Part shown: piece after piece, positions 6,280 to 62,362 of the stretch
How positions within the stretch are numbered: the stretch's first letter is position 1
Layout of the letters: the number at the start of each line of letters is the position of its first letter
Source of the DNA: Ginglymostoma cirratum
Taxonomy: Eukaryota
DNA length: 64,000 nucleotides
NCBI GenBank assembly: GCA_024137785.1
Contig: JAHRHZ010000073.1
Span: 5,132,250 to 5,196,249, forward strand
Reading direction: 5' to 3'
Translations under genes and position numbers: made by a program
Notes under the pieces: generated by a model
What the model saw: the letters and a program-made list of their open reading frames with translations, nothing else
The model's database searches: none
What the model was told of the DNA's origin: nothing

Positions 6280-6930
6280 AATATCCCAGCCCCATGTAGC
6301 TATCCATGACCTGAGTTCATCGGCCTTACCTCTCAGCTCTCTTGCATTGAAATAGGTGCAATTTAATCCAAAAGGTATTCCTCGCTTCCTGTCCTGTTCC
6401 AGCCTGACATGTCTCTTGAACTTGCTGTTTCTGATTATGTATCTCCTTCAGCCTCACAATTGCCTCCTTCACAATTGTTGAGGATCCCACTCCCGTCAAC
6501 TTCCTCTTGCAGTACTAGCAAATCTGCCCATCAGGTTATCTGTCCCCCACCAGTTCAAGTGCAACCCGACCTTCTTGAACAGGTCACCTCTGCCCCCAGA
6601 AAAGACTCCAATAATCCAGAAATCTGAATCCCTGCCCCCACACCAATTCTTTAGCCACGCATTCATCTGCTGCATCCTTCTGTTCTTATCCTCACTGGCC
6701 CATGGCAGTGGAAGTGATCTGGAGATTATTACCATTGAGGCCCTAGTTTTTAACTTCTTTCCTAGCTCTCTACAATCACTCCGCAGGACCTCATTTCTAT
6801 CTCCACCTATATCATTTGTGCAAATGTGCACAACGACTTCTAGCTGCTCACCCTCCCCCTTGACAGCATTCTGCAGTCGCTCCCAAGATATCCTGGACCT
6901 TGCACTCCTTGATACTAGGCCCACGACAAT
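6280..6930 (-). mobile_element. CR1 LINE ORF1 SGNH-esterase fragment
   Basis: ORF 6496-6924 has VVVHICTNDIG (family motif VVVHIGTNDIG), NAWLKNWC and GLHLN. Same strand as and upstream of the ORF2 piece, suggesting one internally deleted copy. Confidence 0.8.
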
Positions 6931-9599
6931 CCCCTCTTGAGAGCAGGTGAGTGCTTCCAGGCTCTAATGTATGCACCGGTGATGCCTCCCCCTCTCAGTT
7001 GCCCTCTGCTGGACACACTTCTTCCTGCTGATCACGGGGGCTGTTGCCAGATGATCTGCTCCTCAGTGCGGGTGACTGCTTCCAGGGACTAATGTATGTG
7101 TCGATCTGATGCCTCTCCCTCTCTGTGGTCCTCTGCTCGGCATTAGGGAAACTCAATTTCCTCTGGCTGGAGAATGTGTGACAAAGGACCAACCATTGTA
7201 GACATTTTTAAGAAAAGAACGAGCGTAACATAGGGAATATCAAGATGCAAAGAGTATCCACCTCATGGAGTATATAAACCATTGAGAGCTGCTGAGGAAG
7301 AGATCATCGCATCTATCAAAATTATGTTGGATAAACCCTAACAGCCGGTTTGTCACCTAACGGTCTGGTGGAATAGTGAGCGTATTGAGGACTCATGCAC
7401 CATGAAAGAATCATGACTACATGCCAGGAAACCATACACAGACCAGCATGACTCGCTTTGCTTGTGGTCACAAACAAGTTGCATATTGAGTGACTGGAAG
7501 ACATTCTTGTTGCAAAACTGCCAATTTAAAATGGGAAACTTGTAAGACTGCTAGAATTGTAAAAACAGCCCATTATGAGTTGAAGAAATCATAAGCAGTT
7601 ACTACTTCTACCCATCCCAAATTTTCTCTTACACCCTAATTGTAGTTAGCAGCATATTTTATTTATGTTTTGCCTCTGTCAGCTTGCTTAACATTGAAGC
7701 ATTTTTTGAGGTGTAGGTTAAACACTGGCCAGACTGATGGCATGCACGGTTTTACTTTGCTCACTCTTACAGCTTGTTGTGAAATTCCGTTAAGCCACGT
7801 TAATCCAGCTCCAACACTAAACTGTCTATCATTCCAAAATATTTGGTAATATCACCCAGAAAAGCCACAGCTTGCCTGGTTTGGAAAATGGAAATAATTC
7901 ATACTGATGAAGTGCGAGATGCTCTGCTGAGAAAAAGACAGAAAGCAGAAGTCGCCTTATACTACATCTGATAATGCAGTGTTTGACCAGTTACGAAAGG
8001 AAGGTGATCCACCTGAAAGCACTAATATCCCCTATTTTAAGGTGGACGAGCACCAGAAGAAAAAATTAAAAGGAGCTAAATCATTTATGAATCAATTAGA
8101 AGGAATGGTCACTTGGGTCAAATGGCCTTCTTCCTAGCCCTAATATTTCTGCACACAGAGAAAATTATTGCTGTCAGATGTTGAGGTCACAGATTGCCAA
8201 TGGGAACATATCGAAGGTTATTTGTACAAAAGTTAATTTTTTTTATAAAGCTGACATAAGCTGTACAAACCCTTTGCTGAGAACTTCAAATGAAGCCTGC
8301 AATTGAGGAGATAATGCACTGATAATTAAATGAATTTATTTGATTGGCTAAATAGCCTTACTTATTGCATGCTTTTATGATGTTGAAATCTGGGAAAGAT
8401 TCCTTGTAACCTGTGCTCTTGATTTTAAGTTACCAAGTTTATATTTACATGCTTGTATACTCTATTCAGAATAAGTTAAAAAATACTTGTATGCTTCCTA
8501 TTGGTGCATTTCTGTACTGGCTTAGACTGGTGCTTCCAAATTTTCTTCAATTATTTCAAGTTCAGCATGATTATCCTAGTCATACAGTTAACAATTTTGA
8601 ATATCAGAACTGTCTTGTCACTGTTCGCAAAGCTTTTTTCAATGCATTATTAAGTTTTTGTTTCTACAGTAAAGTAGACAAAATTGTACAAACTATTTCT
8701 GTTTAGTTTAACTAATTCCTTATAAACATTTAAACTGTTTATGTCTGTTAAATATATGGCTTTAAATTGTTCCAGCAATATAGTCTGATGCATGTAAAAC
8801 AAGATGATATTGCTTGAATGTTTTCAGTGGGCATTTGATAATCACGCCCAAAGATCATTTTTTGCCTATTTTCGCTAATAAACACCCATCTTTCATCCTG
8901 CCTCCTCCAACAAAGCATATCCATAAATTTCTTACAATGGAAAGTAAACTTCCTTAATAAAAAAAAATTCTTCAGAACATTCAAATGAAATCTACCCAAA
9001 CATCCTAATCAGACCAATTCATACTAACCCCATAGGGAAAAATACAATAAACACAACAAGTAATTTGAAAACTGAATTCCTGAATGATTCACGAGATCTT
9101 TTAACATGAATGTGTTTCTGGAGTTGAATTCATGAGCATCATTTTAAAATCTATCACAGATTAAATCCTGTTCATTCAGATTATCTGACTTCACTGACCC
9201 ACAGTGAATTCTTGAACCCATCTCAACATATCGCTACAATCTTTTCCATTCCAGAGCCCACTTCTGTACACTGCAGCCCTCCTCCAGTCATCTCTTATTA
9301 ATGGAAGTCTTCAGCAGAATCTCAGCACATTCTTTACATCTTCACTGCACTGTTTTTTTAAAATCTCAAACCATTTTCTTTAGTGAACTTTCAGTAAATA
9401 TTCTTGGTTTGGTATTTGATATTTGTACTTGGTATTAATAGGCACTATATAAGTACCACTTATTATTGTGATAAACATATTAACCATATTGTTGGCATCC
9501 CACTAAAAGTTGCCAACCGATACTTTCTTCCCTGATAAAATATTCACATTTCAAAGCCTGATGTATGAAGGAATTTTACTTTCCTTATCGACCAGTCAA

Positions 9600-11679: not shown

Positions 11680-12299
11680 AAGCCCAACAAGCCCGTGCCA
11701 ATTCCTAATCTTTATTTGGGCAAGCTAATTATTGCCTATGCATGGTTTCCATCCCTCTGTTCGCTTCACATTCATATGTCTATCAAGATGCGCCTCAAAC
11801 GTAGCTATCATGCCCGCTTCCATGATCTCCACTGGCAATGAATTCCAGGCACCCACCACCGTCTGTGTGAAAAACTTTCCCCCTCTCACCTTGAACCTGT
11901 GCCCTCATGCAGTTGATCTTTCCATCCTGGGGAAAAAACCTCTGACAATCCACCCTATCTACGTCTCTCATCATTTTGTAGACCTCTATTAGGTTGCCCC
12001 TCAGCCTCTGTCCTTCCAGTGAAGACAGCCTGAGTTTAAATAACCTGTCCTCGTAACTACAACCTTGCAGACCAGGAAACAGCCTGGTAAACCTTCTCTG
12101 CATCTTCTCCAAAACATCCACGTCCTTCTGGTAGTGTGGCAACCAGAACTGCATGCAATGTTCTAAATGTAGCCTAAGTAAAGTTTGATATAGCTGCAAT
12201 GTATCTTGCCAATTTTGATATTCAATGCCCGGCTGATGAAGGCAAGTGTGCAGTATGCCTTCTTGCCCACCTTATCCATCTCTGTTGACACTTTCAGGG
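11680..12299 (-). mobile_element. CR1 LINE 3' fragment
   Basis: ORF 11795-12199 QLYQTLLRLHLEHCMQFW..QRRFTRLFPGL..RLRGNLIEVYKMM. Confidence 0.9.
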
Positions 12300-19346: not shown

Positions 19347-19455
19347 ATGATTTCAGTGGAAACTGGTGCATTTCTGGTGTTCGTATCTGTTTCTCTGGTG
19401 AATGGAATAGGATACGTGGGATACAACCAATCACCATATAATACGAAAAGTCAGG
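19347..19455 (+). CDS. col10a1: col10a1-A coding exon (exon 2: signal peptide + NC2), MISVETGAFLVFVSVSLVNGIGYVGYNQSPYNTKSQ
   Basis: Acceptor cttatag|19332, then 15 nt of UTR before the ATG as in mammalian COL10A1 exon 2. Signal peptide ends SLVNG (human NLVHG). Phase-1 donor G|GTAAGT at 19456. Confidence 0.88.
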
Positions 19456-21964: not shown

Positions 21965-22317
21965 TTTCAGATGTGTACCCTGTATTTAATCTCACACAGC
22001 TCCTTGCACACTTTCAGGAAAGCAGCTCAAGAACTGCACAGGCAATTTTTTGTGAGATTCTAAATTATCCAGTATGTTAACTAGAAAATGTTAAGTACTA
22101 TAGATGGAAGAGACTAAAAGGAAAAAGTATCATGATTCCAAAATAATGTCAACAGTTTGAGTGCATAACACATAAAAGTCATCTTTCAACTCAGCACTGT
22201 TGGTCTGAGATAGATTTTAACAATTGTTAATATTAACTAATCCGTACGTAATATGCACAAGTGCATTGATCGATGGAAAAATTTCCAAAATGGGAGGAGA
22301 AATTACAATTTAGCTGT
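21965..22317 (+). repeat. Direct duplication copy 1 (353 bp)
   Basis: >95% identical by eye to 23609-23960. Confidence 0.95.
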
Positions 22318-22391
22318 ATGTTCAAGTCAAATTTAATTTAGTTTGGTTATGTTATTTTTCTTGTAACTCACAACCTGTTTTAATAAAACAG

Positions 22392-22451
22392 GTTATGAAT
22401 TGAAAGGTGTTCCTTATCAGAGTCTTGAGGAAAATCCAAAGGGCATCACAG
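22392..22451 (+). CDS. col10a1: col10a1-A extra NC2 exon (60 nt, phase 1-1): (G)YELKGVPYQSLEENPKGIT
   Basis: aaaacag| acceptor, ACAG|GTAAGA donor, open in the required phase. Splicing to the last exon yields KGITVRGDPG (human KGIAVRGEQG). Resembles B exon 59169-59240. Confidence 0.8.
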
Positions 22452-23608: not shown

Positions 23609-23960
23609 TTTCAGATGTTTACCCTGTATTTAATCTCACACAGCTACCTTGCACACTTTCAGGAAAGCAGCTCAAGAACTGCACAGGCAATTTTCTGAGA
23701 TTCTAAATTATCCGGTATGTTAACTAGAAAATGTTAAGTACTATAGATGGAAGAGACTAAAAGGAAAAAGTATCATGATTCCAAAATAATGTCAACAGTT
23801 TGAGTGCCAAACACATAAAAGTCATCATTCAACTCAGCACTGTTGGTCTGAGATAGATTTTAACAATTGTTAATATTAACTAATCCGTATGTAATATGCA
23901 CAAATGCATTGATCAATGGAAAAATTTCCAAAATGGGAGGAGAAATTACAATTTAGCTGT
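23609..23960 (+). repeat. Direct duplication copy 2 (352 bp)
   Basis: >95% identical by eye to 21965-22317. Confidence 0.95.
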
Positions 23961-30236: not shown

Positions 30237-32068
30237 TGAGAGGAGATCCAGGAATGCCTGGACCACCAGGACCTCCAGGACCCCCCGGACCCCCAGGGCA
30301 AGCTGGGTATCCAGGAAAGCCAGGTGTTGGGTTGATGGGACCCCCTGGCAGTCCAGGACAACCAGGGCCACAAGGACTAACTGTAAAGGGAACTCCAGGC
30401 ATTCCAGGAGTACCAGGGCCTGCAGGGAGAATAGGGTATCCTGGACAAAAAGGCGATAAAGGAATTCAAGGGATACAAGGGCAAAGAGGTAGTCCAGGCC
30501 CTCCAGGAAATCCCGGACCAGCTGGATTGTCTGTTGTTGGTAAACCAGGCCCACAAGGGGCAGTAGGACCTCCAGGAGTACCAGGATTACCCGGAGCAAA
30601 GGGACACCCAGGTTATCCAGGCCTCCCTGGTCAAAAGGGGGATAAAGGAATTGGAATTCCAGGGACTTCAGGTGAAAGAGGGCTGCCTGGGCCACGAGGG
30701 GCACCAGGAACTCCAGGACCAGCAGGATTAACTACATCAGGTGCACCTGGACTTCCTGGTGAACCAGGTAAAAAAGGTGAAATGGGACCACCAGGTCCAT
30801 CGGGTTTTACTGGAGCACCAGGTCATAAAGGGCCACCAGGACCACCTGGACCAACAGGAATAGGAAAGCCTGGAGCTGCAGGTGTACCAGGATTGCAAGG
30901 GCCCCCTGGTTTGAAAGGTCATCCTGGCATACAAGGTTTGCCAGGGGCACCAGGACTGCCAGGTATTGGAAAACCAGGCATGCCAGGGCTGAAAGGAGAA
31001 CCTGGCCCGGTAGGTTATCCTGGATATCCTGGAAAGAAAGGAGAGATGGGACCCATCGGCAAGTCAGGAGACCCTGGTTTGATGGGACCAGCTGGTCTTC
31101 CAGGAGCACAAGGCCCTCGAGGTCTACAAGGAATTCCTGGTGCACCAGGAGAAAAAGGTGCACCAGGACACATGGGTGCACAAGGATATCCTGGATCAAA
31201 GGGTGAGAGAGGTGCAACTGGTGTTCCAGGAATATCAGGGTCTCCTGGGAAATCAGGCTCACCAGGACTACCAGGAACAGTTGGACCAGCCGGTCAAAAA
31301 GGGGATATTGGTCTCACTGGCCCAGCTGGGAAACCTGGAAATCCTGGTCCTCCTGGTCCTCAAGGTCCATTAGGTTTTCCAGGCGCAGTTGGATTACGAG
31401 GAGCACCCGGAATACCTGGTCATAAAGGCTTGCCTGGGTTGCCAGGCCCACAAGGGCCTCCTGGACTAAATGGTGCTCCAGGAAAACCAGGATTACCAGG
31501 TCCTCCGGGTCTCATTAGCAGAGAAATAACAAAGGGGCCACCAGGCGCACCAGGACGAACTGGTGCAGAAGGTGCTCCAGGTCCACCAGGCCTTCCTGGT
31601 CCACCAGGTTTACCTGGTGAAATCTTTGTACAACCAGAGAAATCGGTACAGCCACCACCTGGATTGCTGAGCCCTATTCCAGCTTTTACAGCCATTCTTT
31701 CTAGGCCATATCCACCAGTAGGCCAACCAATAATATTTGACATTCTAGTGACCAATTCAAATAATAATTATGATCCATCATCTGGTGTTTTTACATGTGA
31801 AGTACCAGGGCTTTATCAATTTAGTTACCATGTACAAATCAAGGGGGGGAATGTTTGGGTTTCATTATATAAAAACGGAAAATCCATACTGCAAACATAT
31901 GATGATTATACGAAAGGATATGTAGATCAGGCCTCAGGAAGTGCTATAGTACACCTACATGAAAATGACCAAGTCTACATACTATTACCTTCAGAGGAAG
32001 CTAATGGGTTATATTCATCTGATGAGAAACAGTCATCCTTCTCAGGGTTTTTAATCAGCCCTTCATGA
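30237..32068 (+). CDS. col10a1: col10a1-A last coding exon: ~459-aa Gly-X-Y domain with 8 imperfections + C1q/NC1 domain
   Basis: Acceptor ctttcacag|TG (phase 1, G|TG = Val). NC1 [42 protein letters not shown] matches COL10A1 (YDEYTKGYLDQASG) better than COL8A1; NC2 is short. Full protein about 666 aa. Confidence 0.95.
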
Positions 32069-34717: not shown

Positions 34718-35270
34718 AATAATACATATAGTATCTATCTGGTCTGAATTAAATCGATCTGATCACTTTTGGGGAATATATATGTCATGCAAAGTAATAT
34801 TTATTAACTCCTCACTTCTTAAAAAATAAAGATCATGGGGTCATTATTCCTAGATGGTGACAACAGTCCAAGCCTGAAAAAGGGGCCTATGGACAGTTGA
34901 AGCTTGTGGGAAAGCAACTGGGCAGGTGGTTAAATCAACTGACCATAGTATAACCAAGCTATACTGGGATTTTTATTTAACTTTAATTAAGATGCTCATT
35001 GAAGTTCATGAGTTCATTAATTCATGCAAGTGGAAGCTATTTTCGTGAAAAACACCAAAGTTCAATCATTTGATAATAAGTAAGAGTAGCTAAATCAAAT
35101 GACACAATGAATAGTTAGTTAACAGGCCATAAAAACCGCCTTCAACAGAAGTAATGTATGACTGTGGAATAAGCACAATAATCAAACTTTTGGAAACCCC
35201 TTCCTTGCCCACAAAGCTAAGTTATCCTTCTTCTGATTCCATGATCTTTGCAGCTCTTGTTGCATCCTCC

Positions 35271-36150
35271 AGAGAATCACAGAACAGTTAATGCGCAGGC
35301 GGCCATTCGACCCATTTTGCCTGCACCAGCTAGCACCAGCATCACTACCCAGTGCCAATCTCCTGCTCTTTTTCTGCACTCTTATCCATTATTTTTGTCA
35401 AAGTAAGTATTCAATGCCTTCTCGAATGCTTCAATTGAACCTGCCTCCTCCACGCTTCAAGGCAGTCTCCTCACCCCAATCCCAGGCCCCAAGAAGACTT
35501 TCCACATCAGGCAGAGGTTCACCTGCACATCTGCCAATGTGGTATACTGCATCCGCTGTACCCGTTGTGGCTTCCTCTACATCGGGGAAACCAAGCGGAG
35601 GCTTGGGGACCGCTTTGCAGAACACCTGCGCTCAGTTCGTAACAAACAACTGCACCTCCCAGTCGCGAACCATTTCAACTCCCCCTCCCAGTCCTCAGAT
35701 GACATGTCCATCCTTGGCCTCCTGCAATGCCACAGTGATGCCACCCGAAGGCTGCAGGAACAGCAAATCATATTCAGCCTGGGAACCCTGCAGCCCAATG
35801 GCATCAATGTGGATTTCACAAGCTTCAAAATCTCCCCTCCCCCAACCGCATCCCAAAACCAGCCCAGCTCATCTCCACCTCCCTAACCTGTTTTCCCTCT
35901 CACCTCAAGCCACACCCCCATCTCCTATCTACTAACATCATCCCGCCCCCTTGACCTGTCCGTCCTATCTACTTTATCAAGTGTGTTCATGATATTGAAA
36001 ATTCTAAAATTTATGTTAATTAATATTATGTCCAGTCTATTCATTCTTTCATGTGTATCATATAGGTGATGCTCTGTTTGTTTCAGGGCAAGACATTTAA
36101 ATTTGAATAGTTTGTTTGAAGAGAGAAACAGAAGACGTGCATTATAGCAT
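35271..36150 (-). repeat. Right arm of the composite inverted repeat, interrupted by a Penelope fragment
   Basis: 35271-35465 is the reverse complement of ~34519-34717; 35965-36150 is the reverse complement of ~34085-34392 without the 34173 insertion. Confidence 0.85.
35466..35964 (+). mobile_element. Penelope-like element GIY-YIG endonuclease fragment
   Basis: ORF 35539-35886 VYCIRCTRCGFLYIGETKRRLGDRFAEH..HF..QPNGIN is a canonical PLE GIY-YIG domain. Confidence 0.92.
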
Positions 36151-51250: not shown

Positions 51251-51450
51251 CACATTTGGTTTTGCAACTGTCTGCATGAGGTGGAGACCAATGCCAAAGA
51301 AGGCAAAACAGCTCAAACCACAAGAAATCCACTAACCTGATTTAACTTTTCCATGTTAAAAAAAATATATTCCATAATTAGCACTTTCACTTTTAAAGGG
51401 AGGAGTTGTCAAATTCAGCGATATGTCAAGAACTGTCTACTATATAAATA
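51251..51450 (+). promoter_or_regulatory. Proximal promoter of col10a1 paralog B
   Basis: cacatttggttttg..aactgtctgcatg block; CCAAT 51288-51292; RUNX AACCACA 51316-51322 (second site degenerate, AATCCAC 51326-51332); TTTAAAGGGAGGAGTT 51392-51407; TATATAAATA 51441-51450. Confidence 0.8.
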
Positions 51451-51469: not shown

Positions 51470-51554
51470 GGAATCATTGCTCCAGTTGACACTCCACAAA
51501 TTCAGAGGATAATCCATTTGGGTACTACATTGACTGTGGAGGCAAATTATGCTG
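51470..51554 (+). other. col10a1: col10a1-B exon 1 (5' UTR; TSS approximate)
   Basis: Donor CTG|GTAGGT at 51555; homologous to A exon 1. Confidence 0.7.
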
Positions 51555-51950
51555 GTAGGTTTGAGCTTCTATTTATAATCAATTTCTTAACGTACTTCCA
51601 AGATTCACAAGCAGTGAGGATTCATTCTGTTCATGCTGTATGCTGTCTACTCTATTTTAACTATTTTCTAGCAAATTTTGTCATCTGTTTTAGCTTCATA
51701 ATCTGCAAACTTTATAAAATGATTTGTTACAATATTAAGGAAAAATTTGGTGTCTAAATTTAATTATCATTAATTATGAAAGCTTCTCTGGTAACATCTG
51801 TTACCAGAAAGTGAAGAAACAATTTAAAATTTACAATAATCTTAATTTGATAATATTTACAAATAGTTCTATTGACTTCAAAAGAATATCTTCCTACCAA
51901 TGTTTCTACTAGTTCCTATTGATCCTTTTTTATAGATTTGAACATCAAAG

Positions 51951-52062
51951 ATGGATTCCAAACAAATCTGTGCTGTTCTGCTGTTACTATCTGTGACTCT
52001 GGTCCATGGAACAGGATATAATAGATATGCCTTCGTAAGGAAAAATGTAAAAAGCCACGGAG
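51951..52062 (+). CDS. col10a1: col10a1-B coding exon (exon 2: signal peptide + NC2), MDSKQICAVLLLLSVTLVHGTGYNRYAFVRKNVKSHG
   Basis: Acceptor ttttttatag|51936, 15 nt UTR, ATG in strong context (aagATGg); LLLLSVTLVHG vs human LLLVSLNLVHG; phase-1 donor G|GTAAAT at 52063. Confidence 0.9.
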
Positions 52063-53779
52063 GTAAATTTAAAGATTTCACTTTTTTCAGCACTTAATAC
52101 CAAAATATATGAAATTCTAGAAAGCTTAACGTAAAGCTTAAATGGTTCTCTTTGAAAATGGTTATCTCCCACAACCCACAATGAGATTTACTTTATTGTG
52201 ATTTACTTGAAATTACAATGTTGTTCCTCTGTCAAATGTGGAAAGAAAGAAATTTAGTCTGTGCGCACACTAGTGTATGTGTGTGTTAATGTTTTGGAGG
52301 TGGGGAGAGATGGGGATCATTTATTTTTCCTGCAGGTTGTCTCAGGCACATCCTATGACAGATAATGACATCAAGAACTGAAACAATGCAGAGTAGCAGT
52401 TGGAGCCTATGCTGCCAGCTTTGTCATACTGACTGATAGCACATGAAAGCAGTCCCACACATTGCCTAAGTCTCGATCATAACATACTTTAAGTCCATGC
52501 CACATTGAACTTAATGTCTGTAAGTACTTTGTCTTCTTAAAAAACTTTAAAAAAACCTACCATATTATGAAGCAGATGTATTGAAATATAAACAGATGCA
52601 TGAAAAGTCATTATGAGGTGCTTGGATATGTTATATAAAAAGATTGATTACATCTTTAAAAATTAAGCATTTAATTAATTTGGCAAATTTTCAGATTACA
52701 TTTCTATCCATTTAAAAATATACAAAGAACCTGATCAATTCCTGTCAAGGTGGTTAAAGAAAATTTTAAAAAAAACAGTAAAAATGCCATTCTGGACCAC
52801 AGATTAATCTTTCAATAGAGAGACAAGACTGGCAGTGGTTTAACCTGAGGGTTACCACACCTTAGGCGAGGGAGAAGGTTGAGAAACAGGGATCTTCATG
52901 GTAACCTCAGCTGGTGTGGGAATTGAACCTCATCATAAACCAGCCACCTGAGCTAACCAAGACCTTAAAGAAAATATCAAAAGCTTTCCCTTGTAAAACT
53001 TTTAAAGAAAGTACCAAAAGCTGTACGAAAAAGAGTGGTTGAGAAAACCTAAAGACTCAGCTTTTGTAGCACACAAAATGTTAATAGCGGAGTTGGAAAA
53101 CTTCTATAAAATGTGCAAAACTTAAATCCTTTACATCACGTAGACATTCCAAGAGCACTAATTATGTACATTTACCATCAAAATAGCTATACCACTAGTA
53201 CAGGTTAATTAAGAGCTTAGTTTGCAATTATCACGTTTATCAATACCGCAACAATGGTTATTACTTTTAGTGCAAACAATAATCTAGAGCCTGAAACGAG
53301 GCAGGTTTCTTCTGCAAAAGTAGTCAGCATAATCCTGCAGCTGTTGTTTACTTGGCAACATGTAGAGGGCAGAACTATCACACAGGAAGTACTAATAAAG
53401 ATATTCACTTAAAGGACTCCTTTACAAACTTTTCAAGGAAAGTAAATTTCTGGTGATGATCACTTTTAACCTTTTGAGAAATCTCCGTCAAATCCTTTAA
53501 AGGAAGTCACCTGTTTTCATTTACGCTCTGAAAAAGTTGTGAAGAATCAAAATGACAGCAAAGAATTATGGACATTTAGTGAAGTTTACCTTTGTGGAGT
53601 AAGTGCAATGTGCTTAGCTTCCAATGCATTTATCCTCAATGGCCAATAAACACATCTAAATAACTTCAAATGCAGCTATATTTTATGTGAAATGATTTGA
53701 ACCATATTTAATATGCCACAGTAATACAAGTTATTTGACTACAAATTGGTACTGCCATATATCACCAAACAGCCATGAT

Positions 53780-54170
53780 TCAGTGATAACAATCTAGCTT
53801 CTAAGTCAGAAGCCTCACTCTAGAGTTTGCGACCATTATTTCGACATGTGCTTTATTGCAGTGCTGAGCAACTGGTGAGTGGTTAAGAGTGCTTACCTTT
53901 AGATAAGGGATTTACCTGTCTACCCTCTAAAATTAGTAGGAAATTTGTTTGCAGTATTTGAAGAGCATTAAGATCTCTTGTGCTTTAACCAATATTTATC
54001 ACTCAACCAGCATCGCTAAAACAAGTTATCTGATCATTTTTCTCACTGCTACTTATGGTAGTTTGCTGTGAGAAAATTGGTCACAGTATATTCTTACAAG
54101 TGAGTATGAATGTGAACCATTTTAGGCTACTCTGGCATCATTGAAGGCATTTTGCGAATACAAGTTTATT
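53780..54170 (+). mobile_element. Deu-domain SINE (SacSINE1/AmnSINE1-like)
   Basis: ccaatatttatcactcaaccagcatc..aaaacaagttatctgatcatt is the Deu-domain motif. Confidence 0.6.
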
Positions 54171-54251
54171 ATTCTCTCTTTCTAATGGGTTTGCATGCCA
54201 ATGACCTCCCTATTTATTCTATTTTAAAGAACGTTTGAATCAATGTACAAT

Positions 54252-54390
54252 TGTTCTGAGGAAGGGTCACTTAGCCCAAAACGTTAACCCTGATTTCTCG
54301 CCACAGATGCTGCCAGCTCTTTTCAGCTTTTCCAGCAATTTATGATTTTGTTTTGCATTTACAGCATCTGCAGTTCTTGTGTTCTTTTTA
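54252..54390 (+). mobile_element. Single-arm Penelope-derived mini-element
   Basis: ttctgaggaagggtcacttagcccaaaacgttaac..cagatgctgccag..cagcatctgcagttct, same family as 1577, 19741 and 40616. Confidence 0.75.
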
Positions 54391-55739
54391 ACCATAGTTT
54401 TTATTCTGTTACTCAAAGAATTGATTTTAATGTTAATAATGTCAGAGTGCAACTAGGATAAAATTGAATTTCTAGAATTTAAAGCTAAATGTTGAGACAT
54501 AAATGGAATTAACCCATGCGCAAATAAATAGATTGTTGACTTTAGTTAGTCAAGATTAAAATATTTTAATACAAACAACTGCAGTTAGATGTTGCCTATA
54601 CATATTTAAGCGGCTCTGCTAAATGCACTATTCTACAGGCAAAGGAATAATACAAATGTTTTGAGTCAAGTAACCTCCTGCTTCTTCTACGTTCCCTGGT
54701 AAGTATTATCATAACAAATGAACTGCTGAAATGTGCTCTGAGAATAAAACTCAACATCACTTAAATGGGAGACTCCTTATTTTTAAGCTGCATCCCCAGT
54801 TGTCACCTACACTATGAGGGAAATATCCTCTTGTCACCCACCCTATCAAATGCCCTAAGGATATTTTATATTTCAAGTTTCACTGTCTTTTGTATGTACC
54901 TGTTCTTCTCAAAATATATTACTCTATACTTCTTCAACAGTTATCTATCTAATTTACTATAACCTACGTCTTCAAGTTAAGTCCGCACAGTTAATTACAG
55001 ACAGTAGGTAGAATTTAATACCAGTGACAGGAGTCCTGCCTGCCAGCTGAAGAATTTGCAGAATCCCTACATTTCCTGGACTGGGGAATCCCGACCAGAA
55101 TTAAGCGCCCATCAGTTACTTGACTGGACGTCAGGGCTTTCCCAGGAATTAGACTAATCAGTGACGAAGGGTGCTCCATTGTATGTGAGTACGAGTGAAA
55201 GTGACAGCTGCTGCCAGTAATGCTCCCAACCAGAAGCACATCACAGATACGATACCAGCGGTGGTGGGTTAAAGCCATTATGTGGGCAGTAATTACTCAA
55301 TTACATCATCCATAAGCTTTCCCACTCTAATTTAATTGAACAGAGTTGTCTAGCCACACCCTCACACCTGATTATAACCCTTCCCCCTTCGAACTTTCCA
55401 CCAGAAAAGGCATGAAATTCTGCCCATTATTTCCATGTTGACTACAGCAATACAGATGTTCACTGTCGGCAAATCCAGATCTTGATATAACAAGCTATAT
55501 CTTATATAGCTTGTAAAGCATCACCCTTTACTGCAACATTCGTTCTCTAATACATGGATTTCACTGATACTGAATTTCCTATGCCCTAGTTCAGTAAGCC
55601 TTCAACTCGCGTTGACAAGCAACTTGCCAACTGTATTCTGATAAAGACCAAAATTGAAAATGGTTGAGGACTTGAGCTAAGTGCCAGGGATCTACCACTC
55701 GCTTCACCAAAAATTTAGACTTATTCCTTGAACAGAAAT

Positions 55740-56760
55740 ATGTAAATTAGAAGCAGGTGAGGGTCACTTAGATCCTCAAGCCTGTTCCATAATGGCTGAC
55801 CTGATTACTCCATATTCCCACCTACCCCCAATATATCAAGACTCTACCTTAAAAATATTCAAAGATTTTGCTTCTACAGCCTTTTCAGGAAGAGTGTTCC
55901 AAAGAATTACAGCCCTCTGAGTGAAAACATTTCTCCACATTCTGTCTTAAATGGACAACAGGAAACATCCTCTCCACATCCATCCTATCAGGACCCCTCA
56001 GGAAATTGGGCATTTCAATTGAGTTGCTTCTTAATCTTCTAAACTTCAGCAAATGCAAACTTAGCCTGTTCAACCTTTTCTCAGAAGACAACTTGTCCAT
56101 CCAAGACATGAAGTCTTGGGAACCTTCCCTGAACTGCTTCCAATGAATTTATATATTTCCCGAGATAAGAAAATCAATAGTACTCCAGATATAGTCACAA
56201 CAATGCCCTGTAAAACTCACGTACAACCAGCTTACTTTTGCTGTCAATTCCCCTTGCAGTAAAATTAGTTGCTGTACGTACATGCTAAACATTTGCGATT
56301 CATAAATGATGACTCCCAAGTCACTGCGAAGCTCTGAGTTGCAAGTTATCATTTAGTTAATGTTTCTTTTCTTTTTAAATTCTTCCTGCCAAAACAGATA
56401 TTTGCATATTTCCAATGTCATGCACCATTTGTCAAATCTTTGGCCACTCACTTAACCTATCTTAATCCTTTCCTAGCGTCCTATATCCTTTTCAAAACTT
56501 ACTGTCTTGTCTCTTTTGCTATCAATGCTTTCAGTCCCTGTATTGGATCCAAGTCATTAATATAAATTGGAAAAGCTGAGGTACCAGGCATTTACTCTTA
56601 TGGCACACAACTCACTACATCTTGTTAAACTCAAAATGATCCATTGATGTCCACTCTTTTTCCTGTTAGCAAACCAATCATCTATTCATGACAATATCTT
56701 TCCATAAATAAATAAGCTGTCATTTTCTGCAGTTAACTTGTGATACTTTATCAAATGTCT
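55740..56760 (-). mobile_element. Old CR1 LINE 3' fragment
   Basis: Minus ORF 55885-56109 RLNRLSL..FRRLRSNSIE..DRMDVERMFP. Confidence 0.75.
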
Positions 56761-57609
56761 TCTAAAAAGTATCAAATATTTTCTAAGATGCTTTAAGTGC
56801 AAAGGTGAACTTTACTGAAGTTGTAGTAAATTTTGAATAATAAATAAGTTATTAAAACACATGAAGATTATCAAATAGTGTTAAAAAAAGCATAACAGCT
56901 ACCTATATCTTTTAGCAGCTAATGGTCATTCAAATTAAAAATGTAAACACGTCTTTCATTTCCCAGGATAATTTGATTTGATTTGTTTTTGTCACACATA
57001 CCGAGATTCAGTGAAAAGTACCGTATTGAGTGCTAACCAGACAAACCATACCTTACATTAGTACATCAGGGCAACAGAACCGAATGCAGAATATAGCTTT
57101 ACAGCTACAGAAAAAGTGCAGGGCAATTTAGCTGAAAATAGGGTGTGACTAAAATATCAGATGGAGAGTCAATTTTCTTGTTCAGCATGGACAAATTGGA
57201 CTCAAGGGACTGCTTCTACGCTGTACAACTCACTTTAAACTTTGACAATACTGACAGCGAAGTGACAGTCAAAACTTTGAAATAACTTTCACACAACTGT
57301 GTTGAAAACATAGTTGCAGAACTTGATAACCAATTGCTGCACTTGCAGCCTGCCAAGTTCTTCCATTTGTAACATATTTTGGATTAATTCCTTTTATACT
57401 TAAATGGGAAGTTTTTATTGAACATAAGCCAACATGTCTGAAAACTCTAAAGGGGCTGTAAATGTTCTATCTACCTTTAAGCTATCCAACAAAGCAGAAC
57501 TCTCAGATTTATTTTTCCTTTGCGTTTCTGTCAAGGATAACGCACAGGAGATGTCTACTTCACCGCACACCACAAAATCTAGGTCATTAACTTGGTTTAC
57601 AATTAAGCA

Positions 57610-57900
57610 CTGAGAGTACTCCGAATTGTCAGAGTTACTGGGTTTCAGGCCAGGTCTGCTCTCTCAGGTGGGTGTTAATAATATTTAGTGGGAACTATTT
57701 GAATGATAGCTTTGAATTCTTTTTGCTGTCCTGGCCAATATTTATTCCTCAACCAACGTAGCTCCATCAAAAACAGTTTAATTGGTCATTTACTCTTGTG
57801 CAAAGTGATCACCATATTTCCTAACATAATACCAGCAATTGTACTTCAAAATTAACCAATGGTTTTGAAGCATTTCAGACACTAAGAGATTTAGAAAGAT
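57610..57900 (+). mobile_element. Deu-domain SINE
   Basis: gtctgctctctcaggtgg..tgtcctggccaatatttattcctcaaccaac is the Deu core. Confidence 0.65.
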
Positions 57901-59168
57901 CTAAGTTCTTTTTATCATGCATTTATGGCTAATAATATGTAGCATTTGCCATTAGGTGATTGACTTGGGGAGGTGAACACAAGTTAGAAGATTATTCAAA
58001 ATTACCATCTGGTAAGAATGCCAATGTAACAGTTGATGACTATGCTTCCAGAATAGAACTTCGATACAACTGATACACAAATGAATGAAGTCAGACGTAC
58101 AGGTCAACATGGGCTACCAATAATCACTCCTGCATAAAGCTCTGTGCCCATGTGAAGAATTACAATATTCATGTTACATTCTAATCTTATACCCTCAGGT
58201 TATGCTATCCCTAATAGCAGGTTTTTTTTTCCAGTTTTTCCAGGGCTGAGCAATTGGAAATAGGAAACCTGCGCCACTTTTCTCTAACTTAGGAACAGTT
58301 ATCTTGCAGTGCATTCAACATTACACAGCCCATTGTTAGCTAATTCAGCATAAATAGTAAATCAAGCATGAGATCTTTGCTATGTGTATGACCAGATTCG
58401 GTGCTGAATTAGACAGACTGTTTTTGTCAATGGTGAATGTTAAGTGCTTTGCGAGGCTAGAAGACTAATGCAGTTAAGGCCACAGTCAGATCAGCCATAA
58501 TCTTCACAAATTGCAGAGTAGGCTCGATGAACCTAGTGGCCTGCACCTGTTCCGAGTCATACATCACACAATCTTAATTCATTGTATACAATTACTGAAT
58601 TATCACAAAAGTCTTGTTAGCTTTTTTTCAGGTTTTACTTTCTTACCTGAACATAGTTTATGCAACACGTATTTCACAAACTAAATCAGTTGAGCTTGCA
58701 CTTATTATTTTGCTGGATATATTTTGCCCGGGCAACTGGCGATTCAATTTTGCATAGAACTTGGGTACACACCTAAGTGGTCACTTTGCCATAATACCGA
58801 GGGGCTGCCACACCAGCTTTCATAAGACATCAAACTAATCTCCTGTATACCTGTCAGGCAGGTATGACCGATCGCATAGCATTTTGCAAAGTGAAGCAAG
58901 GAGTTTTTCTAAAGTCATGGCTAACATTAATAATCAAGCAAGAACAGATTCACTGATCAGCACTGCACTCATTAGCTGCTACATTTCCCTACAATACAAT
59001 AAAAATTAAAGATTTTTCTCCTTTAAAGGTAATTCACGTCACTGTGAAACACTTTGTGATATCCTAGGATACCATACATGTGCAGGGTCCTTCTTTAAAA
59101 ACAAGTGAAGCTTTTCAAAATGCTGCATTTATTCATCACTTACTTTTATTGTCTTTCTTAAACAACAG

Positions 59169-59240
59169 ATTACAATGTAAAAGCATATGAATCTCAGAAC
59201 TCTGAAGATGAGGGATATGAAGACAATGATGAAAGCAGAG
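59169..59240 (+). CDS. col10a1: col10a1-B extra NC2 exon (72 nt, phase 1-1): (D)YNVKAYESQNSEDEGYEDNDESR
   Basis: Polypyrimidine tract + aacag| acceptor, strong GAG|GTGAGC donor, open in phase 1, purine/GAA-rich; its N-half resembles the extra exon of A. Confidence 0.82.
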
Positions 59241-59526
59241 GTGAGCAACATGCAGACTTTGCACATATTAACAGGTTGGACATCTGAAACCTCCTCAGCA
59301 ACAAAACAAATGTGAAAGTTAAATTCAAAGTTGTCAATGATTTGGTATCATTGAACTGGGGTTGATTTTCAAGCTACCACATGCATAAAATTACAGTTGC
59401 CTAATTTTCGTTACGATTTCTAAAGTAACATTACTTAAAAATGATCAGCGAATACTACGAGATTTTTAAAAAGAAACTCAATTCAAAATGGCAGAATCTA
59501 AACTATGCTTCATTTTTAAACTGTAG

Positions 59527-61367
59527 ATGTAGGAGGAGAACGCGGCCCACCAGGTCCTCCTGGGCCACGGGGCCCACCAGGACCTCCTGGGAAAACAGGC
59601 ATTGGAATGCCAGGCGCCCCTGGCAAGCCTGGAATGCCAGGAGCACCAGGAATACCAGGAATGGGAAAACCAGGAATGCCAGGAGCACCAGGAAAGTCAG
59701 GTGAAAGAGGAGCTCCAGGACCAAAAGGCGATAGAGGATCACAAGGGATGCCTGGACCTAAAGGCAATCCGGGAGCACCAGGATATCCTGGGCCAGCAGG
59801 ACTGGCTACTGTTGGCAAACCAGGTCCACAAGGGCCACCAGGTGCTACAGGAGCACCAGGTCAACCTGGAGAAAAAGGAATACCAGGGCATATGGGTCTT
59901 CCTGGACCAAAAGGGGAAAAGGGAATAGGACTTCCAGGGCGTCCTGGTGGCAGAGGGGCAACAGGACCACAAGGGCCTGCAGGACCGCCTGGACCAGCAG
60001 GATTAGGAAGTGCTGGAGCCCCTGGCCGTCCGGGTCCACCTGGTGAGAAAGGTGCAATGGGCGCTCCAGGTGAACCAGGATATTCAGGTGCTCCAGGCCA
60101 AAAAGGACCGCCAGGAAGTCCCGGTCTTCCAGGACGTGGAAAACCAGGAGCACAAGGTGAACCAGGGTCACCTGGGGCTCCCGGAAGCAAGGGTAATCCT
60201 GGTCCACAGGGTTTACCAGGTGCACCTGGACTGCCAGGTTTTGGAAAACCAGGTGTACCCGGACTCAAAGGAGAACCTGGTCCTGTGGGCCCTGTTGGTT
60301 ACCCAGGAGAGAAAGGAGAGGCAGGAGCAACTGGGGCACCTGGAGAACGTGGGCCTGTCGGGCCAATAGGTTCACCTGGACAACAGGGTGCCAGGGGCTC
60401 ACCAGGTGCTAATGGTGCACCAGGAGAGAAAGGGCAGCCAGGTCCAGCTGGCGCTCGTGGATACCCAGGGCCAAAGGGCGAAGCAGGCCCTGGCGGTGCC
60501 CCAGGTAAATCAGGAGCTCCAGGAATACCAGGTAGACCAGGTCAAGCAGGACCACAAGGACCAATTGGTGCAAAAGGTAGTATGGGAGCTCCTGGCTCAC
60601 CAGGTAAAGAAGGAAGTCCTGGTCCCCCAGGTCGTCATGGACCACCGGGCTATCCTGGTGAAGCCGGATCAAGAGGAAGTGCAGGACCACCTGGTCCAAG
60701 AGGTCCACCTGGCCCTCAAGGTTCTCAAGGGTTTTCAGGGGAAAAGGGAGATCCAGGCCCTCCTGGTCCACCAGGTCCTCCTGGAAATTATTACGGGAAA
60801 ATGGCAAGTGGGTCACCGGGTGCACCAGGGCTGAAAGGGCCACCTGGACCTCCAGGCCAACCAGGCCTTCCTGGACCACCAGGCCCACCAGCAGAAGTGA
60901 TCATGTCCCCAGGCAAATATGATTATAGCGGCTACATCAAGTCAGGAGAACCTTCAGCTGGGTTACTCAGTCCATATCCAGCTTTTACAGCCATTCTGTC
61001 CCATTCGTATTACCCAGCTGGACAATCAATAGCATTTGATAAAATACTGACCAATTCAAATAATAACTACGATCCATCAACCGGTATTTTCACATGCGAA
61101 ATATCCGGCATCTATCAATTTAATTATCAAATACAAGTTAAGGGAGCAAATGTTTGGGTTGGATTATACAAAAATGACGAGGCAGTGATGTACTCATACG
61201 ATGATTATACAGAAGGTTATGTTGATCAGATCTCAGGTAGTGTCACATTATACCTACATGAGAATGACCAGATCTATGTACAGTTACCCACAGAAGAATC
61301 TAATGGCTTGTATTCTTCTGACCTCATGTATTCATCATTCTCAGGGTTTCTAATTGTCCATTCATGA
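59527..61367 (+). CDS. col10a1: col10a1-B last coding exon: ~452-aa Gly-X-Y domain with 8 imperfection sites + C1q/NC1
   Basis: Acceptor ctgtag|AT (G|AT = Asp; an in-frame alternative AG lies 6 nt downstream). Reads [10 protein letters not shown].. into ORF 59607-61367. NC1 [31 protein letters not shown]. Full protein about 674 aa. Confidence 0.95.
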
Positions 61368-61813
61368 TATGCACCAGCTTGAAACATGGACTTGACTAGA
61401 TGATCCATGTTCTATTCCAAGTGACGTTAACAAAATTTAGTTAATGGCGCAAATTAAAAGAAAGGACAACAGGTGAATAGAAGGGTAGCTATTGTTACAT
61501 TAAGAAACATACAGTTCTGCCCAGTCAACTGCTGTATTGTCATCATCTGCAAAATGTCATTTACTTGAAACAAGGTGCTTTAGGTTTATGACATGTACCC
61601 AGGCAACAGAGATGAAATTAGTCTTCTCATGAAATGTTTCAAAAAGTTACCTTATTATTCTATTTTTAAAGAAACTCTGTTGTCATAATATCAACTCAAA
61701 ATTTCGCTGTCCTTCTATGTGCAGAAAATATTGGTGCAAAAATATATTTGTACTTGACATTTACAGTTTCACAGGTGCTCAGCATTAGCAACTAATCATC
61801 TTATTCTGATTTA

Positions 61814-62177
61814 ATTAAAGTCAGTCTGGAATTCCAATCATGTCCAATTACAAGTTTCTTTAAATTCAACTCCAATGTTTAATAACATCCCTTTGTGTCA
61901 AGATCAGTTTAATCCCATTGTTCTTTGTGTTTTAATAGTAAATTACAATACTTACTTTGCTTTTCCATTTGTAAAAAGCACCTTATTAATGCTAAATCAA
62001 TCTAAGTGACATTGATAATGTATGTATTCTCCAAAAAATGTGTCTAAAGTACAGTCACATAAATTATATTATCACAAATCACAAAATACTTCAATACGAA
62101 ATTGATCTTTGACGTGGTGGGTTTTTCAAGTAATGCAGTATCACAAGTGCATTTTTGTTCCTGTGCAGTTAAATAAA
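61814..62177 (+). terminator. Candidate polyadenylation signals of col10a1-B
   Basis: ATTAAA 61814-61819 and AATAAA 62172-62177. Confidence 0.4.
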
Positions 62178-62362
62178 TGGTGATTGTTACAAATTTCAAG
62201 TCTACACTGAGTATTCTTACCAGTCGAGCATCCGTGGTTAAATTCATAAGGTGACCTCATGTCCACTTTGATCAGGAAGATAGCTCTATTGCCAAATATG
62301 TTCTTCACAGCTGACATGACCTAGTTGGGGACGGCGGTATGGGGGGGGGGGGGGGGGGGGGG

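Follow-up and report, generated by a model that had tools for sequence, protein, structure and literature searches.

The window, by which we mean the whole 64,000-nucleotide stretch of DNA analysed here, carries on its plus strand a gene with the architecture of a type X collagen: signal peptide (recognised by eye), NC2 region, Gly-X-Y helix and C1q-type NC1 domain are all present. A TATA-like box (51441..51448), a promoter predicted from sequence, lies upstream of a non-coding exon 1 (51485..51554, with an approximate 5' end) that is followed by a donor GT at 51555; exon 2 (51936..52062) starts translation at ATG 51951 and encodes a predicted signal peptide followed by the first half of NC2, which is basic; the coding part of the last exon (59527..61367) is an open reading frame for the helix and NC1, matching the Pfam families Collagen and C1q. 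The stop lies at 61367, and the 3' untranslated region runs on to AATAAA at ~62172. Between exon 2 and the last exon lies a mini-exon of 72 nt (59169..59240). Exon 1 was located with a contig of sequencing run X4, which comes from a related species and whose RNA nature is a guess; the part of this contig that precedes 51935, a loose end of 70 nt, aligns to the window near 51524. The 5' end of the contig falls in a non-coding exon with its end at 51554, which brings the gene to four exons. By Pfam, the helix and the C1q domain are ordinary; among single domains of solved structure, NC1 was best matched by collagen X (1gr3, E 1.3e-50), compared with E 2.5e-44 for collagen VIII (1o91). Elsewhere in the window, open reading frames of at least 150 aa at 6482-6963, 11795-12271 and 35237-35935 resemble retrotransposon fragments.

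For a survey of the gene cluster, 200 kb around the window were added and the signal-peptide exon of each copy was located. Six collagen X-like NC1 domains lie in tandem on one strand of the contig (C73), within ~225 kb, and two further long-ORF NC1 matches, collagen VIII-like, lie on other contigs of the same genome. The copies follow one another in the order.2,.3,.4,.5,.6,.1, with the gene described above in third place; the published Col10a1.2 motif occurs in the first copy and a non-acidic insert in the second, the fourth matches the published SE domain of whale shark Col10a1.5, and the fifth has the Col10a1.6 insert (PMC6759074). Cluster position, the helix (~9 differences in ~360 residues from whale shark Col10a1.4, counted by eye), the N-terminus encoded by exon 2 (in agreement with the catshark and ray Col10a1.4 given in the supplement of PMC6759074) and the published acidic motif identify the gene, at the level of sequence comparison, as elasmobranch Col10a1.4; the assignment was made by eye against the Rt, Sc and Rc Col10a1.4 sequences of that supplement and is not tree-based. 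Judged in the same way, its source is a shark close to the whale shark.

Splicing and conservation of the Col10a1.4 mini-exon

The mini-exon, plus-strand and bounded by phase 1 on both sides, encodes the acidic NC2 insert DYNVKAYESQNSEDEGYEDNDESR, with nine Asp/Glu, three Tyr and three Ser in 24 codons. It is preceded by AG at 59167-59168, the end of an acceptor region (59130..59168) in which a pyrimidine tract is followed by an A-rich stretch and then by CAG, and the donor GTGAGC (59241..59246) stands directly 3' of it. From the end of exon 2 at 52062 to the start of the last exon at 59527, the frame is kept with or without the mini-exon. The initial annotation had given these exon coordinates, this phase and this peptide composition, and all agreed when recomputed; of the splice sites that it had called strong, the donor merits the description (score 6.4), whereas the acceptor, A-rich right before CAG, is only moderate (2.1). 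In a ranking by a crude position-weight score from our own script, applied to in-frame candidates of 24-300 nt within the Col10a1.4 intron, the mini-exon came first of 197 open AG..GT candidates, scoring 8.6 with the next at 4.2, and it was the sole candidate of at least 20 aa with at least 33% Asp/Glu; a rescan that admitted 21-nt candidates added one more at 8.4 (55736-55756). The stretch 59100-59300 had one match in its own genome, namely itself, and a Pfam search with the mini-exon peptide matched no family.

To sequence and frame can be added the evidence of transcripts. Fifteen sequencing runs with matches were listed, none of them on record as RNA, and four were compared over 51800-62200. 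In one of the four, X4, a single contig (depth 797.6) joins 52062 to 59169 and 59240 to 59527 at GT..AG, the two junctions that had been proposed as a check on the exon. Runs X1 and X2 gave unspliced, near-identical cover of the exon, and X6 gave lower-identity, genomic-like cover with none over the exon; these three runs are uninformative on splicing, and neither mini-exon joint was among their rows listed. Direct splicing from 52062 to 59527, named beforehand as the outcome that would speak against the exon, was not seen among the 15 joints listed of 40, in contigs that drop rare variants. The catshark Col10a1.4 riboprobe (supplement of PMC6759074, translated by eye) likewise crosses both junctions with the exon included; inclusion is thus seen in transcripts from two other species, the relative sampled in X4 and the catshark. 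The mini-exon is a real, spliced extra exon; a chance open frame is ruled out as an account of it, because the splice joints are exact. Short interspersed repeats in the same intron (52800-52950, 54240-54390 and 55960-56160) drew many contigs in all four runs.

Compared with the window, the contig of run X4 has one difference in the 72 mini-exon positions, six in 126 positions of exon 2 and 66 in 684 of the helix. By Fisher tests the mini-exon differs from the helix (p=0.015), a contrast that rests on one relative and overstates constraint because the helix has many tolerant positions, and it does not differ significantly from exon 2 (p=0.43). The catshark mini-exon has 27 codons, owing to a 9-nt in-frame duplication (3 residues) that Ginglymostoma lacks; the frame and the acidic run are kept, as are the first two tyrosines, and the catshark cDNA reads E-G-N where the nurse shark genome has E-G-Y (PMC6759074). 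In protein searches for a chondrichthyan Col10a1.4, a helix plus NC1 query returned nine matches and none of this kind (a teleost collagen-kinase fusion and eight proteins that were otolin-like or bore generic collagen-C1q names), and queries with the NC1 region (90 candidates at 1e-45) and with exon 2 (two candidates) returned none either. A representative protein search gave one useful entry among 150 listed, the horn shark model XP_067876004.1. This model, of 2324 aa, fuses a reverse-transcriptase fragment with Col10a1.5 and Col10a1.6, and its name, 'collagen alpha-2(IV) chain-like', is a mis-annotation of the Col10a1 cluster. Annotated shark genomes may well model the mini-exon; the searches made here did not reach such models.

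Mini-exons of the neighbouring Col10a1 copies

The initial annotation had described the extra exon for one paralog. It is not unique to this copy, because.2,.3,.5 and.6 have such exons as well: phase-1 mini-exons occupy the same intron in all of them, one each in.2,.3,.4 and.6 and six in.5, ten in total, and the Col10a1.1 intron held no convincing mini-exon. In Col10a1.3, the coding part of exon 2 (19347..19455, plus strand) encodes a predicted signal peptide and the last coding exon (30237..32068, plus strand) the helix and NC1. The mini-exon predicted from sequence between them (22392..22451, plus strand; 60 nt, phase 1-1) is weakly acidic, with one S-x-E site, an A-rich acceptor and a strong donor; an insert in this copy is not mentioned among the inserts in the accessible parts of PMC6759074. 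A direct duplication of ~350 nt (~21965-22330 and ~23610-23960), seen by eye, flanks it. The SE domain of Col10a1.5 consists of six phase-1 mini-exons of 63-96 nt (C73:5215972-5232282), several of them clear mutual duplicates. The Ser/Asp mini-exon of Col10a1.6 (C73:5260448-5260486, 39 nt) is identical in translation to horn shark in all 12 of its whole codons and is present in the catshark probe; the main text of PMC6759074 gives acidic inserts for.2,.4 and.5 only and does not list.6. XP_067876004.1 contains recognisable counterparts of all seven.5 and.6 mini-exons, with identities from 12/12 to 14/20. In the catshark probes of PMC6759074, inserts are present for.2 and.6, and.1 is spliced directly.

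The acceptors of these exons have a composition of their own. Three or four of the positions -7 to -4 are A in 10/10 mini-exon acceptors, as against 0/6 last-exon acceptors. A DNA-only acceptor rule retained 13 of 100 open candidates in the introns of.2 to.6, which collapse to the ten mini-exon acceptors, with control rates of 0/26 in.1, 2/72 in a collagen VIII-like intron and 1/96 on the antisense strand; only the control rates are independent, because the rule was set after the acceptors had been seen. Among the exon bodies, several pairs from.2,.3,.5 and.6 are similar at a nominal p<0.05, with strong similarity within.5. For the.4 exon body, comparison with the nine other mini-exons, as protein and as DNA and against shuffles, gave nothing significant (best p=0.07), and a leave-one-out profile ranked it below 1434 of 2000 shuffles. 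With its flanks it reached p=0.015-0.03 against intronic controls in three of nine pairs, values that would not survive correction; without flanks, none of the nine pairs was similar.

Position, phase and acceptor suggest a single ancestral mini-exon for.2 to.6, a descent that is not proven for.4. A single phase-1 mini-exon would have been gained after Col10a1.1 split off, would then have diverged in.2 to.6, and would have multiplied to six copies in.5; it may have originated by insertion, or by the split of a longer ancestral exon 2. A collagen VIII alpha-2-like signal-peptide exon elsewhere in the genome (C26 ~16337200-16337350) ends in K-G-Q-Y, the same four residues that open two Col10a1.5 mini-exons, which could be chance. 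It is conceivable, if on balance doubtful, that the cluster represents a mineral-tuning collagen X toolkit of cartilaginous fishes, in which one symmetric mini-exon, gained after.1 had split off, diversified into a carboxylate-rich form in.4 (vertebral), phosphoserine-type forms in.2,.5 and.6 (tooth and scale) and, in.3, a form close to neutral; each copy would set the mineral type of its tissue.

Expression and candidate roles of the acidic insert

In catshark vertebrae, Col10a1.4 reached 194 TPM, as against <=7 for the other five copies, and it was the only copy detected in mineralizing vertebrae (PMC6759074); its vertebral expression has been confirmed (PMC13188829). It was also found in odontoblasts but not in ameloblasts, where Col10a1.1 is expressed, and in Meckel's cartilage, at the stage that was examined, none of the Col10a1 copies was detected (PMC6759074). 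Of the tissues previously proposed for the insert, mineralizing vertebrae and odontoblasts are supported by the expression of this copy; enameloid and tesserae are unsupported, because Col10a1.4 was not reported in ameloblasts and no copy was detected in Meckel's cartilage at that stage. Within the cluster, it is Col10a1.4 that is linked with mineralization of the shark endoskeleton.

Inclusion of the mini-exon changes the character of NC2. With it, the region has ~44 residues, with 10 Asp/Glu and 6 Lys/Arg, and without it ~20, with 1 and 4; the net charge goes from ~+3 without to ~-4 with the exon, the basic first half of NC2 partly offsetting the short acidic tail. The phosphoserine context once suggested for this region is not there: the Col10a1.4 NC2 contains no S-x-E site and one S-x-D, inside the mini-exon, while S-x-E sites number 10 in Col10a1.5 and two in Col10a1.2. 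Among the NC2 tyrosines, Tyr 54 is the only one in an acidic context, with seven Asp/Glu within five residues compared with 0-1 for the other four, and tyrosine sulfation follows no universal consensus (PMC7310474). The E-G-Y-E-D tyrosine, put forward in the initial annotation as a sulfation site, is Asn in the catshark cDNA (PMC6759074), which speaks against sulfation there as a shared elasmobranch feature. A conserved sulfation site was disfavoured on this ground, and any sulfation of Tyr 54 would, going by the two sequences, be lineage-limited. The two tyrosines conserved in catshark have one acidic neighbour each.

The reading that we tentatively favour, at a little under even confidence, is that the acidic stretch equips collagen X at mineralization fronts with tails that would bind calcium or apatite. 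The 24-residue acidic insert lies after the predicted signal peptide and ahead of the triple helix; trimers in vertebrae would carry three such tails, since.4 is the sole copy detected there (PMC6759074). The tails would act mainly through carboxylates, and not through a conserved sulfotyrosine or canonical S-x-E phosphoserine, and, together with the conserved NC1, would raise Ca2+ locally or tether the collagen X network to young apatite; human collagen X NC1 holds four calcium ions (PMC8172203), and the Col10a1.4 NC1 aligns to it. In favour of mineral binding,.2,.5 and.6 have inserts at this place that are likewise acidic or else rich in Ser; against it stands Col10a1.1, which is without such an exon and yet is expressed in ameloblasts (PMC6759074). 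The insert is in any case a small, cleanly removable unit for probing the interaction between collagen X and mineral.

A mostly structural role, which we consider possible though unlikely, would make the mini-exon a spacer that keeps the length of NC2 close to the usual and adjusts solubility, charge or network assembly, with any calcium handling resting on NC1 and on matrix-vesicle contacts. The NC2 lengths of ~42, 38, 44 and 34 aa in.2,.3,.4 and.6 are indeed near the mammalian 38, and.4 without its exon would have ~20; there is little acidity in the.3 exon, NC1 is conserved relative to the calcium-holding human domain (PMC8172203), and a 3-residue duplication is tolerated in catshark (PMC6759074). 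Yet a pure spacer does not predict an acidic or Ser-rich composition in four copies, nor the conservation of the.6 exon (12/12 with horn shark) and of the.4 exon (1/72 differences in X4), and Col10a1.1 works with ~4 NC2 residues.

It is improbable that the acidic tail serves instead as a heparin-like or sulfotyrosine-based binding site for basic partners, for instance growth factors or other matrix proteins, with no direct binding of mineral. Such a site would have precedent in the acidic, sulfotyrosine-rich N-termini of small leucine-rich proteoglycans, which are described as heparin mimics (PMC7310474), and would draw on the favourable sulfation context of Tyr 54 in nurse shark and on the first two exon tyrosines kept in catshark; but the best sulfation candidate is Asn in catshark (PMC6759074), and the conserved tyrosines have their single acidic neighbours only. 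Regulation of the exon as a cassette, such that mineralizing cells would include it and make an acidic collagen X and cells elsewhere would skip it and make a basic form, appears quite unlikely. The moderate acceptor would suit such a cassette, and the symmetric phase permits in-frame skipping, but this symmetry is unavoidable for all such mini-exons because they are located in a phase-1 intron; moreover, both transcript sources include the exon, and no skipping joint occurred among the 15 of 40 listed. That the mini-exon was shuffled in from an SCPP or SPARC-L gene is barely credible and was rejected, its acidic composition and the DMP1-like annotation of the.5 domain (PMC6759074) being outweighed by its phase 1-1, as against phase 0 for the first three coding introns of elasmobranch scpp (PMC9122587), and by its lack of S-x-E, of a second DNA match in the genome and of a Pfam match.

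Published inserts and other mineralization-associated proteins

The acidic motif of Col10a1.4 and the general hypothesis are already known and have been in print since 2019. Debiais-Thibaud 2019 (PMC6759074) described the motif SE E/D XXXEXX E/D E/D XX E/D in Col10a1.4, a Ser/Glu-rich, DMP1-like SE domain in Col10a1.5 and a DSSEE motif in Col10a1.2, all three inserts sitting between signal peptide and helix, and proposed convergence on acidic SCPPs for Col10a1.5. Searched before the helix as SE[ED]xxxExx[ED][ED]xx[ED], the published motif occurs in one of the six modelled copies, Col10a1.4, where it matches exactly, running from residue 12 of the mini-exon to the opening residue of the exon that follows; in 264 kb read in all six frames, a shortened form was found a single time. 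The earlier proposal of an acidic NC2 insert with an SCPP-like role thus holds as regards the inclusion of an acidic exon, and is anticipated by PMC6759074 as regards the motif (.4) and the idea of convergence (.5). That paper gives one sentence to the.4 motif; a separate exon, the tyrosines and a function for.4 are absent from its results and discussion, and 'NC2' and 'splic' have no occurrence in its main text. In the literature searched, no exon-level description of the Col10a1 inserts, as small phase-1 exons in the same intron of.2 to.6, was found. The present analysis adds the exon-level anatomy, the confirmation of splicing in another species, the loss of the proposed sulfation tyrosine in catshark and a hint of common descent, from one mini-exon, for the inserts of five copies.

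The NC2 of mammalian COL10A1 is non-acidic. Mammalian COL10A1 and Col10a1.4 share a signal peptide, a short NC2, a Gly-X-Y helix and a C1q NC1, with helix and NC1 in the last exon. The three-exon structure previously cited for mammals holds for the mouse, which has a 38-aa NC2 (PMC2134813), whereas shark Col10a1.4 has four exons.

Comparison with the SCPP proteins has to begin from a correction, in that this family had been described in the initial annotation as largely missing in cartilaginous fishes. SCPP-like proteins are not missing in sharks, because an elasmobranch scpp gene (PMC9122587) and expanded SxE-rich spp2 duplicates (PMC13188829) exist. Acidic SCPP/SIBLING proteins, elasmobranch Scpp/Spp2 and Col10a1.4 are all secreted, Asp/Glu-rich and expressed in mineralizing tissue, and the mini-exon, with 9 acidic residues in 24, has the Asp/Glu-rich region of SCPP/SIBLING proteins. 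The Col10a1.4 insert is unlike them in being a phase-1 exon without S-x-E, whose 24 residues are attached to a collagen. Derivation from the 5' exons of sparc-L and a place in the sparc-L cluster do not fit an exon that is part of a Col10a1 gene, with no other DNA match in the genome. Phase 0 is the commonest intron phase in bony-fish scpp genes and is that of the first three coding introns of elasmobranch scpp, the fourth being phase 1 (PMC9122587), whereas the mini-exon has phase 1 on both sides; the S-x-E (Fam20C) sites of SCPP/SIBLING proteins are likewise lacking from the Col10a1.4 NC2.

The SE domain of Col10a1.5 and the DSSEE insert of Col10a1.2 share with the.4 insert the position after the signal peptide, the phase-1 mini-exons and the A-rich acceptor; they are Ser-rich with S-x-E, whereas the.4 insert is Glu/Asp-rich without it. 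If the possible collagen X mini-exon toolkit outlined above should prove true, it would parallel the exon-duplicating SCPP genes of bony fish.
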